DNA of 64,000 bases from an uncultured Clostridia bacterium (GCA_949443285.1 CASSLW010000001.1:137093-201092); one strand, 5' to 3'. Numbered from the stretch's first letter, positions 34,401 through 44,339 are shown. The notes: a model not told the origin generated them from the sequence alone. Numbers and translations: made by a program.

Positions 34401-34436
34401 TTTTTTATTAAACCACAACATATATGTTATGGTTTA

Positions 34437-34468
34437 CAAAAAGGCCCTACCTTAAGATAGGACCTTTT
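34437..34468 (-). terminator. Rho-independent terminator closing the island operon
   Basis: Minus strand: GGUCCUA-ucuuaagg-UAGGGCC (one G-U pair) followed by UUUUUG. Confidence 0.5.
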
Positions 34469-34487
34469 AAAATGATTTTCACTCTAA

Positions 34488-35702
34488 CTAATAAACTATT
34501 AATTCAAGTGGTAACTGGTGGCTTAAAAACCACAGAGTAGATGCACTGTAGCAATAAGCACCAGCCTGTGTCAAAACAACAATATCGCCAATATTTGCAT
34601 GCTCGATATATTCATCCCATGATATCTTGTCTTCAGTCATACACAATGGACCTTCAATATCAACTATCTCATTTGAGACTTCAACCTGTTTTTCGTAGAG
34701 TTTGGCAATTTCCATCTCTACTATATACACAGGATGCTTTCTATCAGTTGCAATAGGCAATCTCATGTGGTTTACGCCGCCTGCTGTGACAATATGTTTC
34801 ATACCTTTACAATCTTTGATATCCACAATACGTGTCACATAATAGCCAGCGCTACCAACAATAAACTTTCCGAGTTCAAGGATAAACTCCTTGTTTTCGA
34901 AGGAATACTTCTGAATAAGTTTTTCTAAACCTTCAAAGTACGCTTTTGTATCAAAATGTCTGTCAGATTTGGTATAGTCTATTCCAAAGCCGCCACCAAA
35001 GTCCACAACGTCAATTTTGCCGAGCACTTTCTCTGCCTCTTTTACAAACTTAAAAACAAAGTCTGTATACTTAAGCAAAATGCTATAATCCAAAACTCCA
35101 TCTGCTGCAAAAACATGAAAACCGCAAACATTAATGTGGCCAAGAGAAGAAATGATTTCATAATTCTCGTAAAACTTGGACTGATCCATTCCCATCTTAG
35201 TGGACATTCCAGCCATATACTCAGATGCACCATCAAGAAAATAATCTATATTTACTCTTAACAGTACGTCTACCTTTTCTATACCTTCATCTTCCGCAAT
35301 GTTGTTAATGCGAATTGCTTCAACAACCGATTCAACGTTAATGAATCGTATCTTACTTTTTACTGCTTCTCTAAGCTCAATTGGTGTCTTTCCTGGCCCT
35401 GTAAAAATAACTCTGTAATCATCTTCAAGTCCTGCAGCTCTTGCAATATCAAGTTCTCCTGTCGAGGCAATCTCTACACCTGCAATGCCACTGTGTGACA
35501 AAACATGTTTTAACACCTCTTTATTTGGATTTGCCTTCATCGCATAATACAGTGTAACGTTTGAGAGCTTTGTACTATCCACCTCATTTATCCGTGCTGT
35601 GATTTCCTCCATGTCATAAATATAACATGTTGGATTTACCATAACCTCACGATTTTGAGTAAAGATAGACTTAATATGCTCTTCTACTTTTCTATTCATC
35701 AT
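34488..35702 (-). CDS. Fold-III PLP-dependent Orn/DAP/Arg-type decarboxylase
   Basis: YAMKAN PLP-lysine motif, GGGFG, ELGKFIVG (EPGR-like), and a C-terminal PLCMTED Cys loop. 404 aa, with higher G+C than the flanks. Confidence 0.75.
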   Translation of the reverse strand: MMNRKVEEHIKSIFTQNREVMVNPTCYIYDMEEITARINEVDSTKLSNVTLYYAMKANPNKEVLKHVLSHSGIAGVEIASTGELDIARAAGLEDDYRVIFTGPGKTPIELREAVKSKIRFINVESVVEAIRINNIAEDEGIEKVDVLLRVNIDYFLDGASEYMAGMSTKMGMDQSKFYENYEIISSLGHINVCGFHVFAADGVLDYSILLKYTDFVFKFVKEAEKVLGKIDVVDFGGGFGIDYTKSDRHFDTKAYFEGLEKLIQKYSFENKEFILELGKFIVGSAGYYVTRIVDIKDCKGMKHIVTAGGVNHMRLPIATDRKHPVYIVEMEIAKLYEKQVEVSNEIVDIEGPLCMTEDKISWDEYIEHANIGDIVVLTQAGAYCYSASTLWFLSHQLPLELIVY

Positions 35703-35818
35703 AGCAATACCTCCGTTCTGCGTTAAAAGAAAAGCAATGGTAACACAGATGTAGCTAGTACTACCCTATTAAGTTATCTTGTTACTACATATTTTTTAGT
35801 TACAGATTAGGCTGCCTT

Positions 35819-41948: not shown

Positions 41949-43337
41949 CTACCTCCTAATCAGACTAATCACAGGTCTATACTTTGTTCCTTTGTCATAA
42001 GGTAATTCATGCACTTCGTGAACATGTACCTTTGTTGAACGTGGTACCAAAGTATAAATTGTTTCTTCGAGTTCCTTAAGTGGTAATGAATACTCTCCCT
42101 CAATAATATAAAGATCAAGTCTTCCTACCTTTGGCTGAACAAATTGGTATCTAAGTCCATGAACAGGAATGTTATAAACTAAAAACCAGTTATATGCAAT
42201 ATCCATAAAGCACGAAGCTGGGATACTTTCACCAGTATCGGTTATTACGCAATCCATATTACGTCCTTTTACACCTTCGATGATTCTTCCGTTGTTTCCA
42301 CAATCGCAGGTCTCATCAGTTGTAATTTTTGCTAAGTCCCCTTGAACATAGCGAATAATTGGTGTTGCGGTATTAAGTAAATTAGTACCAACAACTATTC
42401 CCACCTCTCCATCTGGAAGTTTATTGCCATCTTTATCTACAATTTCAATAAAACAAGCATCTTCTTCTAAATGATAGTGATGATTAGGACATTCCAATGC
42501 AATTCTTGTAAGTTCCTCACTACTATATTCATCAAGAACTTCCACATTAAGCATATCCGCAAGCATCTTTCTTTGCGTCTTGTCTGACTGCTCTGAATGA
42601 ACGATAACAAGTTCAACACCATAATCTGAAAGTTTTACACCTGTTGATGCAATTTTTCCCAGATACGTTGGATAAGTTGAAATGTATCGTGGTCTAGTTT
42701 GTTTTATATGCTCTATAGCATCTGTTACTTTTGTAGTAGTCGACAAGTAATCCTGCACATACTTTCCTTTTATCTGGCTTGTCCACCAAGGACAAGTATA
42801 AATAAATAAAATAGTATCATCTGCGCAGTATCTCTTACCTGACTGCATATAAAACTGACGAATGGTTTGTAATGTGTCTTTGTATATTGCCTCTTGTGAA
42901 ACAGCAATTGTTACAAACTTACCACTCGAACCTGAGCTTCGGGTTGAAAGCATAAAGTCATCAATATCCTTTACAATTTCACCAGGGAATCCGTTAATTA
43001 ATTCTTCTTTACGAAGATATGGTAGCTTATAAAAATCATCCCATGTTTTAATACTTCCTTTTACATATCCAACTTCAGAATATTTCTTCCTGTATAACGG
43101 AATGTTCTCAAAAGCATAATCTACGAGATACGCAATTCTTTCAAGCTGCCATTTATGGATTTCATCTGGAGAACTGTTAAGAAAACTGTTAAGACTTTCT
43201 AATGTCTCATCTACCTGTTTTTGAAGATTCTCTTCATGCATCGGTAGAGACATATAACTTTCTCCTTTTTTTCTTAATGTAACATACTCTGTTTTAGAAA
43301 TGTGCTTCATACTAACCTCCTCTTTTAAAAGCTCCAT
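41949..43337 (-). CDS. PaaK/CapK/coenzyme-F390-synthetase-like adenylate-forming ligase
   Basis: STRSSGSSGKF AMP-binding P-loop and PaaK-like domain organisation. 462 aa. First gene of the island operon. Confidence 0.7.
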   Translation of the reverse strand: MELLKEEVSMKHISKTEYVTLRKKGESYMSLPMHEENLQKQVDETLESLNSFLNSSPDEIHKWQLERIAYLVDYAFENIPLYRKKYSEVGYVKGSIKTWDDFYKLPYLRKEELINGFPGEIVKDIDDFMLSTRSSGSSGKFVTIAVSQEAIYKDTLQTIRQFYMQSGKRYCADDTILFIYTCPWWTSQIKGKYVQDYLSTTTKVTDAIEHIKQTRPRYISTYPTYLGKIASTGVKLSDYGVELVIVHSEQSDKTQRKMLADMLNVEVLDEYSSEELTRIALECPNHHYHLEEDACFIEIVDKDGNKLPDGEVGIVVGTNLLNTATPIIRYVQGDLAKITTDETCDCGNNGRIIEGVKGRNMDCVITDTGESIPASCFMDIAYNWFLVYNIPVHGLRYQFVQPKVGRLDLYIIEGEYSLPLKELEETIYTLVPRSTKVHVHEVHELPYDKGTKYRPVISLIRR

Positions 43338-43487
43338 CTACTAAAAAATGTTGTTCGACTATCTATATATGCTGTGTAATCACACATGCATTTGTTCCTG
43401 CTAAAATCATTAAAAGCAAGTATACTATTGATAATCGTTATTTATTATACATCGTAAGTAACATAATGTCAATATTTTTTGCTTTTA

Positions 43488-43910
43488 TTAACATAATTTT
43501 TCATTTTCTAAATCTTGACTAAATCTTAATACATATCCATTTGGATCTTGCACTAAGAATTCTCTACAACCCATTAAAATATTATCTTTTCTATACCAAT
43601 GTTCTTCCATATCTACAAATATTTTATAGTTTGCTTTTTTTAATCTATTATATATATCGTCTATGTTAGTTACATCTATTTGAAAGTTAATTCCCACTCC
43701 AAGTGGATATTCTATTTTTCCTGTTTCCCATTTATTGTTTTCTTTATCTATTTCTTGTATCATAAGCTGTACATTTTCAAACTGCAAAAAAGCAAATTTA
43801 TCTTCTTTTCTATCATATACTATATGAAATCCAATTAAGTCAATATAAAAGTGTAAACTATCTTCCAAGCTAAACACATCAAATTCTGGCAACATTTGAT
43901 TCCATTCCAT
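43488..43910 (-). CDS. VOC/glyoxalase-bleomycin-resistance family protein (140 aa)
   Basis: Paired beta-alpha-beta-beta-beta modules. There is a ~90% identical paralog at 48855-49262. Confidence 0.6.
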   Translation of the reverse strand: MEWNQMLPEFDVFSLEDSLHFYIDLIGFHIVYDRKEDKFAFLQFENVQLMIQEIDKENNKWETGKIEYPLGVGINFQIDVTNIDDIYNRLKKANYKIFVDMEEHWYRKDNILMGCREFLVQDPNGYVLRFSQDLENEKLC

Positions 43911-44150
43911 TTGTATTTCCTCCTCATATTATTTTATCTTACTATATCATATAAAAAAGAAAAAAGAAAGATTATTTTTTAATTATGAAAATTTTGTAAA
44001 GTATTACATCTTCTGTTTACTTTAAAAATATATAATAATTATTTATGCATATTAATTTATTATAAATAAAGGCTTATTAAATTTTCTTTATTTTACTAAA
44101 ATTCGTTATTTATATAAAACAGCTACGCGTCGCTTATATCAAGCACTTTT

Positions 44151-44339
44151 TTATTTTTCTACAATCCACCCCCAGATTAGTATTATACGGGTGTAAAGTC
44201 TCCGTGGATGTGAAAATAGTACTAACCATTTTCCTTTGTAGTCTTCTAGTTTTATTTTTCCGAATGTTGTTTCTGCTTCAAAGTTTGGCGCTTTTTGTCC
44301 TATTCTTACGTTGCCATTCATCATTAATTCATAGTCCAT
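44151..44339 (-). pseudogene. Peroxiredoxin N-terminal fragment (26 native codons, then unrelated sequence)
   Basis: [45 protein letters not shown], after which it diverges (RRLYTRIIL...). Confidence 0.7.

Follow-up and report, generated by a model that had tools for sequence, protein, structure and literature searches.

A horizontally acquired gene cassette of uncultured gut Clostridia, with a RaSEA-like radical SAM enzyme, a PaaK-like ligase and an ABC-F ATPase, as a candidate locus for biosynthesis and self-protection

Within a 64,000-nucleotide stretch of DNA from an uncultured Clostridia bacterium (GCA_949443285.1 CASSLW010000001.1:137093-201092; hereafter the window), the segment from 43.97 to 34.41 kb carries a gene of the VOC (glyoxalase/bleomycin-resistance) fold followed by a seven-gene operon for six enzymes and an ABC-F ATPase. 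We propose, at a probability of roughly 0.5, that this segment is a horizontally transferred, self-contained cassette that makes a small nitrogen-rich metabolite and protects its host. From the association of the genes we infer that the locus serves biosynthesis, not catabolism or detoxification, and that the ABC-F confers resistance. The same association suggests that the product probably acts on translation, since the ABC-F, a ribosome-associated protein, and the VOC protein are read as self-protection.

The cassette comprises eight genes, the VOC gene and one promoter-to-terminator unit of seven same-direction genes (43310..34488, minus strand), which are separated by 3-14 nt except for a gap of 116 nt between the ABC-F and decarboxylase genes. 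Gene starts were fixed by the ribosome-binding site together with gene calls on matching public contigs, and the curated cut-offs of NCBIfam were used as orthologue thresholds. From the VOC gene through the operon to its end, the features are:

43488..43910, minus strand: VOC protein (glyoxalase/bleomycin-resistance fold), 140 amino acids, host-like G+C of 0.258 (PF00903; weak match to bleomycin-binding protein)
43444..43472, minus strand: operon promoter, TTGACA-17 nt-TATAAT, 12/12 matches (promoter scan; cross-host homology begins here)
41949..43310, minus strand: PaaK-like adenylate-forming ligase, 453 amino acids (PaaK 110 vs cut-off 646; PDB PaaK 1e-21)
40708..41943, minus strand: RaSEA-like (TIGR01210-related) radical S-adenosylmethionine (SAM) enzyme, 411 amino acids (TIGR01210 187 bits vs cut-off 212.15)
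39611..40699, minus strand: ThrC-like fold-type II pyridoxal phosphate (PLP) enzyme, 362 amino acids (PF00291; threonine synthase 95 vs 266; PDB ThrC 4e-18)
38354..39607, minus strand: class I/II PLP aminotransferase-fold enzyme, 417 amino acids (PF00155; best NCBIfam model GntC, 113 vs 415; PDB aminotransferases ~1e-15)
37456..38349, minus strand: arginase/agmatinase-family ureohydrolase, 297 amino acids (PF00491; agmatinase 117 vs 174; PDB agmatinase 2e-21)
35819..37441, minus strand: ABC-F ATPase, 540 amino acids, two nucleotide-binding domains and a linker, without a membrane domain (PF00005 twice, PF12848)
34488..35702, minus strand: fold-III PLP decarboxylase, 404 amino acids (PF02784, PF00278; lysA 217 vs 298; speA 25 vs 624)
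34437..34475, minus strand: intrinsic terminator of the operon (fold -20.7 kcal/mol, z = -4.8; homology to other cassettes stops at 34406)

A first-pass annotation of this DNA had described seven tightly packed co-directional genes, and Pfam, NCBIfam and PDB searches bear out its domain assignments for all seven proteins and for the VOC protein. Its ligase start at 43337 moves to 43310 on the ribosome-binding site and the public gene calls, and the ureohydrolase begins at 38349, hence the overlap with a neighbouring gene that had been described disappears; likewise, where a zinc ribbon had been called, the ThrC-like protein has a conserved CxxC...HRH motif at its N-terminus and not a four-cysteine ribbon. 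The operon-closing terminator that had been placed at 34437-34468 proves to be a 12-bp stem followed by UUUUU, and the VOC gene does lie immediately 5' of the operon promoter, with an upstream region of its own. In composition, the seven genes have a G+C of 0.362 and a third-position G+C of 0.30, compared to 0.277 and 0.183 for 24 flanking genes, with disjoint ranges (Mann-Whitney p=7.6e-7), and their synonymous codon choice is unlike that of the flanking genes. The shift in G+C and codon usage that had been suggested as a check is therefore real in both measures, and its extent is narrower than had been judged by eye: only the operon (~34.4-43.3 kb) is elevated, the VOC gene being host-like.

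Strains of the same organism that lack the island show an empty site, and this proves that the segment was inserted. Two contigs from other samples that encode an identical M20 protein (L044 and L045) served as empty-site references; in both, an AAA_14/DUF4143 ATPase gene runs directly into prx with nothing between. The empty site aligns to the window (BLAST) at 99.9% on the 45954 side and 98.7% on the 34391 side. Because the empty-site contig matches both outer sides as well as copy 2 of a repeat derived from the 5' region of prx, the DNA from 45953 to 34392 is extra and consists of two modules, an older one with a DUF3841 gene and serine-recombinase remains and a younger one made up of the VOC gene and the operon. 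Direct repeats of the prx 5' region had been noted as brackets of the island and read as a sign of horizontal acquisition; the acquisition is confirmed by the empty site in the sister strains, and the repeats stand, with three copies (34184-34396, 44190-44402 and 45954-46091) rather than two:

34184..34396, minus strand: repeat copy 1, prx promoter and 5' end of donor type, lacking the frameshift and continuing into the rest of the native prx (alignment)
44190..44397, minus strand: repeat copy 2, native prx promoter and first ~52 codons, native 1-nt frameshift kept (100% over 208 bp to L044 and L045)
44398..45953, minus strand: older inserted module with gene fragments and the DUF3841 gene (absent from L044 and L045)
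45167..44589, minus strand: DUF3841 gene (Pfam), with its own perfect promoter (45237-45208) and terminator (44584-44559)
45954..46091, minus strand: repeat copy 3, native prx promoter and first ~27 codons, running on into a degraded serine-recombinase-like fragment (repeat family, alignment)

The prx gene of the island-free strains (L044 4957-5656; L045) has one extra nucleotide (CCACGGAGAC), and its frame is broken immediately ahead of the catalytic cysteine motif. Copy 1 differs from the empty site and from copy 2 by about 12 substitutions and by loss of the extra C, and the intact prx of the window (34334..33636) is composed of the copy 1 start and the native remainder. The donor prx 5' end that arrived with the cassette restores an intact prx, with the native 5' end left behind as a duplicate. 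Such a pattern would be expected if a circular molecule with ~215 bp of a foreign prx 5' end had recombined with the chromosome by one crossover.

The surroundings of the insertion site hold further traces. At 45802-46029 (minus strand), the prx start continues in frame into a serine-recombinase-like fragment (…DDNVSGYTFDRPSFSKMI…) within a 75-amino-acid open reading frame (ORF), after which short broken ORFs occupy 45283-45755; these are what is left of an integrative element that had occupied this site earlier. The AAA_14/DUF4143 ATPase gene that adjoins the site (46083-47393, minus strand) matches the PADLOC candidate defence family PDC-S01 with 579 bits.

The cassette is far from unique to this organism. 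Close homologues of the radical SAM protein form more than 120 clusters at 76-93% identity, and a scan of species-representative genomes yielded 25 loci (given here by L numbers), all in uncultured metagenome-assembled genomes (MAGs). The carriers are gut Clostridia of mouse, human, rabbit, sheep and water deer, together with a Candidatus Onthoplasma, a Bacilli MAG, a groundwater Clostridiales MAG and a Woesearchaeota archaeon. The full order, VOC-ligase-radical SAM-ThrC-aminotransferase-ureohydrolase-ABC-F-decarboxylase, is found in about 20 of the 25 loci at 54-94% amino-acid identity (tBLASTn), and the genes next to it are unrelated among the hosts (gatCAB, sporulation genes, rpsI-rplM, MacB transporters). 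Nucleotide homology to the other hosts has its start exactly at the -35 box, ends shortly after the terminator and takes in the VOC gene as well, and the G+C of the cassette lies above that of its flanks in nearly every host. A conserved neighbourhood, which the first-pass annotation had advised looking for, is thus present: enzymes and resistance-type genes, the seven operon genes plus VOC, are collinear in about 20 other genomes and in unrelated contexts. The ligase and radical SAM genes are adjacent in all 25 loci, making the PaaK-like ligase beside the RaSEA-like radical SAM enzyme the invariant core across all relatives.

Several individual loci depart from the common layout. Direct repeats again flank the cassette in L035 and L013; in the Bacilli locus L035 these are perfect 62-bp repeats (7004-7065 and 17279-17340), and an extra DUF6271 gene (7338-8642) leads the cassette and overlaps the ligase gene. 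In the Bacilli MAG the later genes stand in a changed order. In one host group (L008-L011, 17571-19460) a second ABC-F gene, for a 629-amino-acid Uup-like protein with a C-terminal domain, directly follows the cassette and is probably the host's own. In a mouse-gut assembly (L041, 1313-2546) the radical SAM gene is in pieces of 157 and 208 amino acids, either a frameshifted cassette or an assembly error. Beyond cellular genomes, viral contigs contained no relative of the radical SAM protein, and a plasmid collection held only distant relatives of it and of the ligase (<=33% identity), with the cassette on no known plasmid. Literature searches on ABC-F clusters, radical SAM enzymes in Clostridia, ThrC-like/agmatinase combinations and TIGR01210 gave no description of this cluster, and in PADLOC the six enzymes and the VOC protein had no defence-system match, the ABC-F giving only generic ATPase matches.

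As its proteins belong to the same domain families as speA/speB, lysA, thrC and aspC, the block might be taken for chance-adjacent genes of primary metabolism (arginine, polyamine, threonine or lysine) alongside a housekeeping ABC-F. We find this barely credible, as it is already contradicted by scores, empty sites, composition and unit transfer: every gene falls far under the orthologue cut-offs, the block is missing from sister strains and foreign in composition, and it moves between hosts as a unit. The ABC-F is not of the EttA type, scoring 367 against cut-offs of 599 (NF008775) and 807 (TIGR03719), and lies under the cut-offs for Uup, YbiT and YheS too. The distance from anything CHARACTERISED is general, with every enzyme well under the cut-off of its nearest NCBIfam model, and by these scores no operon enzyme is a housekeeping orthologue. 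Because all of the enzymes stay below the cut-offs of characterised families and the ABC-F fails EttA, the set is neither speA/speB housekeeping nor EttA. The first-pass annotation had held that its interpretation would weaken if the genes were never co-localised elsewhere, had housekeeping orthologues and came with an EttA-type ABC-F; what was found is a recurrent cluster of divergent enzymes with an ABC-F of another type.

Despite their divergence from curated families, the enzymes retain recognisable features. The ligase scores far under the cut-offs of the NCBIfam PaaK, DVU_1553 and DdaG families and has SSGSSGK as its P-loop; the ThrC-like enzyme has the SFKDRG lysine motif; and the ureohydrolase has all six metal ligands intact (GGDHS, DAHSD, DTD). 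The decarboxylase also scores under the cut-off of the exosortase-associated decarboxylase model. Its best solved relatives are PDB 6knh (194 bits) and BtrK (149 bits), and it appears nearest to decarboxylases whose substrates are amino acids in conjugated form. We take 6knh to be SbnH of the staphyloferrin B pathway, for which a literature search for 6KNH gave no confirmation.

The three-cysteine motif of radical SAM enzymes binds the 4Fe-4S cluster that cleaves SAM. In the cassette protein, the Cx8Cx2C form of the motif that had led to the original radical SAM call is present as C75-x8-C84-x2-C87, is invariant in 29 orthologues and is accompanied by four C-terminal cysteines. CX8CX2C is a recognised variant of the radical SAM cysteine motif (PMC9477430). 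Pfam PF04055 did not match the protein at E up to 0.001, and no sequence match was found in PDB. The AF2 model (pLDDT 78, pTM 0.84) is in accord with the call, as its best Foldseek matches are almost all radical SAM enzymes (LAM, Elp3, PFL-AE, MiaB, viperin and queuine lyase among them), all of them loose at TM <=0.45; the model predicts a partial TIM-barrel radical SAM fold. Only 68 matches at E below 1e-30 were found among 1.84 billion representative proteins, with identity dropping sharply from 51% to 40%; the subfamily is rare. Its more remote members include fusions to DDAH-like, GNAT, TIR or ABC domains. One distant RaSEA-like relative (28% identity) lies on a Bacillus thuringiensis plasmid (NZ_CP009349.1 309984-326952; L179) within a fatty-acid/polyketide-synthase-type cluster that contains an adenylate-forming enzyme, carrier proteins, a ketosynthase (KS), a thioesterase (TE), FabZ, FabG, AsnB and a phosphopantetheinyl transferase (PPTase), and it provides a cultured-organism handle on the wider radical SAM family.

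In the chemistry that we envisage, which draws on family precedents and above all on ArcS/RaSEA, the ligase would adenylate a carboxylate and couple it to the amine of an amino-acid or diamine unit, and the radical SAM enzyme would then remodel or cleave beside that nitrogen. In the ArcS/RaSEA precedent, lysine is attached and radical cleavage then leaves only its nitrogen (PMC11298593). The PLP enzymes, decarboxylase and ureohydrolase would tailor a unit derived from arginine or a diamino acid: the ThrC-like enzyme and the aminotransferase may make or modify the amino-acid unit, the SbnH/BtrK-like decarboxylase may take the alpha-carboxylate off the conjugate, and the ureohydrolase may free an amine from a guanidino group. 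The ABC-F, acting at the ribosome, and the VOC protein, by binding or inactivation, would provide self-protection, and the structured leader RNA described below would set expression, possibly with an attenuator before the last gene.

The protective half of this proposal depends on the ABC-F and VOC genes. The ABC-F passes only the generic model NF000355 (455 bits, cut-off 380), and its closest PDB entries are EttA (270 bits), ExpZ (257 bits) and PoxtA (239 bits). ABC-Fs encoded by antibiotic producers are a recognised class (NF000171, 'ABCF_producer'). The VOC protein is likely a binding or inactivating immunity protein, judging by the company it keeps: its linkage to the operon is maintained in about 20 genomes despite rearrangement, with the gene downstream of the operon in two loci (L020, L028) and 6 kb away on the upstream side in two others (L026, L027). 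VOC homologues are numerous, and the three that were sampled (83-88% identity) are all orphans with no operon nearby, located in a defence-island-like region, between NUDIX genes, and on a mobile element that also encodes an integrase, TnpV, Mob, APH and a zeta toxin. By association, this circulation of orphans resembles that of immunity or resistance genes. The host has an orphan of its own:

48835..49263, minus strand: native orphan VOC paralogue, truncated by a GAA-to-TAA change to a 102-amino-acid ORF (89% nucleotide identity to the island VOC)

The truncated paralogue is also present in the island-free strains, being called at 102 amino acids in L044-L046, and its neighbours are genes for an APH-like kinase (49282-50112), a Fic protein (50162-50995) and an M20 ArgE-like deacylase (47548-48576). 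M20 deacylases are also found in reduced ligase-radical SAM clusters, which are described below.

A number of observations weigh against the proposal of a biosynthetic cassette with self-protection. Against the named resistance subfamilies (Vga, Msr, Lsa, Sal, OptrA, CplR and the producer type) the ABC-F scores 242-334 bits where cut-offs are 680-1450, the ABC-Fs of related clusters likewise failing every one of them, and its linker is about as long as that of EttA; because it falls in no named resistance subfamily and has an EttA-like linker length, its role in resistance is putative. The VOC gene has a host-like composition and common orphan copies, and for these reasons its link to the product is associative only. 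No exporter, protein regulator or carrier protein is encoded within the cassette. Every enzyme of the set could in principle work catabolically, the similarity of the radical SAM enzyme to RaSEA, on which the ligase/radical SAM chemistry is modelled, is sub-threshold, and all carriers are uncultured.

Several of these observations bear on the main rival explanation, namely that the locus is a resistance, detoxification or catabolic island, in which the ABC-F and VOC proteins shield the host from an antibiotic that other gut microbes produce, the enzymes break down that antibiotic or a related guanidino or amino compound (by ligase modification, radical C-N cleavage, deguanidination, transamination and decarboxylation), and the leader RNA senses the incoming compound. 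Two resistance-type genes travelling within a mobile unit would suit such an island, as would the lack of an exporter and the orphan VOC gene that neighbours APH and zeta-toxin genes in a mobile element; catabolic pathways commonly employ ureohydrolases, aminotransferases and decarboxylases, and RaSEA and queuine lyase are radical SAM enzymes that cleave C-N bonds. We nevertheless regard it as unlikely: adenylating ligases, which consume ATP, and ThrC-like replacement enzymes typically serve anabolism, resistance cassettes with seven enzymes are unusual, and related clusters add molecule-building enzymes, namely ATP-grasp ligases, a second PaaK-like ligase and SPASM radical SAM enzymes.

These related clusters comprise seven reduced loci, which retain from the cassette only the ligase and radical SAM genes (the ligase is duplicated in Clostridium sp. 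CAG:440) and add a SPASM radical SAM enzyme or a variant radical SAM enzyme with an ATP-grasp protein, an M20 ArgE/DapE-like deacylase, a GNAT protein and an ABC-F. Compared to the window, their ABC-Fs are 37-40% identical, their ligases 55-57% and their radical SAM proteins 60-66%. As the identity of the ABC-Fs is far under that of the ligase and radical SAM proteins, the comparison suggests that ABC-Fs were recruited to ligase-radical SAM clusters more than once. An ABC-F is present in nearly every bacterial version. The Woesearchaeota version (L036) has the ligase, radical SAM, ThrC-like, ureohydrolase, aminotransferase and decarboxylase genes without an ABC-F; in its place, a gene for an MMR_HSR1+TGS GTPase (7715-8635) overlaps the ligase start, with a TrmB regulator upstream and a gene for a C39-like peptidase downstream.

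The recurrence of ribosome-associated NTPases in bacterial and archaeal versions also suits a different explanation, in which the product is a polyamine-like or amino-acid-derived modifier of the host's own translation apparatus (a tRNA, ribosomal protein or elongation factor) and the ABC-F is its functional partner. The radical SAM enzyme is related to a tRNA-modification enzyme, and the decarboxylase and ureohydrolase recall polyamine chemistry. Against this, the trait is mobile and strain-variable, with sister strains lacking the cassette, the VOC, GNAT and M20 genes look like immunity or prodrug logic, and Pfam detected no tRNA- or protein-binding domain in the enzymes. We consider a modifier of the host's own translation quite improbable, and return to the biosynthetic cassette with self-protection as the preferred explanation.

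Expression of the operon appears to be controlled at the RNA level. Two structured elements were recognised in its transcript:

43311..43439, minus strand: structured 5' leader RNA, 129 nt, three-stem junction (RNAalifold, covariation, single-sequence minimum free energy)
35725..35767, minus strand: conserved hairpin and U-tract between the ABC-F and decarboxylase genes (RNAalifold, 10-bp stem)

The leader is conserved between hosts. Fourteen leaders were aligned with MAFFT and stems were taken from RNAalifold, giving a closing stem P1 (GAUUAUC/GAUAGUC), a P2 hairpin with the loop UUUUAAUGAUUUU and a P3 hairpin with the loop (G/A)AUU. Pairing is possible in 90.9% of cells, compared to 30-46% in slid controls, with two-sided changes in 14 of 19 pairs; none of 500 shuffles reached the observed value, a model-based alignment gave a similar result, and the minimum free energy fold of the single sequence is the same three-stem junction. 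A covariance model found 19 loci, only upstream of the ligase gene of full cassettes, and no leader motif in the reduced clusters, L028, L035 or L036. Besides the window, the leader precedes the ligase gene in L008, L012-L014, L016-L027, L033, L040 and L057. A metagenome scan with a loose leader pattern returned 120 mostly random matches, of which only L057 was upheld by the covariance model. Rfam gave nothing credible for the whole region (E up to 1) or the leader alone (E up to 10). We therefore consider the leader a candidate riboswitch or cis-regulator and a putative new structured RNA, in which no terminator or anti-Shine-Dalgarno element was evident. A leader peptide (upstream ORF) at the conserved AUGAUUUUA was considered and rejected, as it lacks a ribosome-binding site, its reading frame is not constant, and L023, L024, L026, L027 and L033 have no AUG there. 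The hairpin at 35725-35767 shows compensatory change in six pairs and an embedded shorter alternative hairpin on the same 5' arm, and may be an internal attenuator that limits read-through to the decarboxylase gene.

The most specific form of our proposal, which is tentative and on present evidence doubtful, is that the cassette is the first pathway for a small-molecule translation inhibitor from uncultured gut Clostridia, combining a ligase and RaSEA-like radical SAM enzyme that use an amino acid as sacrificial nitrogen or scaffold donor, a new ABC-F lineage, VOC immunity and a new riboswitch class that senses product or precursor. If the proposal of a biosynthetic cassette is true, never-cultured bacteria hold a compact (~9.5 kb) transferable pathway, possibly for a new ribosome-targeting chemotype with resistance genes for an ABC-F and a VOC protein, the latter already in circulation by itself on mobile elements of gut communities. 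The RaSEA branch of radical SAM enzymes would also gain its first non-tRNA role, and structured regulatory RNAs would gain a new member. At its small size the cassette can be synthesised and expressed, which makes the hypothesis directly testable.

Antibiotic clusters are known to encode producer ABC-F types such as OleB, CarA, SrmB, TlrC, LmrC and VarM. Like these clusters, the cassette is a mobile, accessory locus with a membrane-domain-free ABC-F inside a biosynthetic-looking operon. Unlike them, its hosts are uncultured low-GC Clostridia rather than actinomycetes, it has no polyketide synthase, nonribosomal peptide synthetase or sugar machinery, and its ABC-F reaches 293 bits where the NF000171 cut-off is 800. 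The best solved relatives of the decarboxylase, SbnH (presumably PDB 6knh) and butirosin BtrK, both act on an already conjugated amino acid, as proposed here; their identity to it is low, and because the cassette has no NIS synthetase or carrier protein, their substrate is not transferable. The ligase shares the ANL fold and a P-loop with the natural-product ligases of the PaaK family (DdaG of dapdiamide, NatL2/AjiA1 of benzoxazoles, and BagE/FevW), with weak matches (DdaG 1e-5, BagE 4.5e-9, AjiA1 and the PaaK-like ligase 6siw 6e-9 to 7e-8), whereas all of its scores are far under their cut-offs.

In the ArcS-RaSEA archaeosine system of Euryarchaeota (PMC11298593), as in the cassette, the radical SAM enzyme is TIGR01210-related, and its constant partner is an enzyme that attaches, putatively in the case of the cassette, an amine-bearing substrate. 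The cassette differs in its partner, a PaaK-like ligase rather than an ArcS/TGT-fold protein (Pfam and NCBIfam found no ArcS/TGT-type domain in the seven operon proteins or VOC, and there is no tRNA-binding domain), in a radical SAM score below the cut-off, and in its bacterial hosts and mobility. Finally, although the leader has no Rfam match and has so far been seen only in this cassette, it resembles three-way-junction riboswitches, such as the purine class, in having, over ~85 nt, a closing stem and two hairpins with conserved loops directly 5' of a putative biosynthetic operon.

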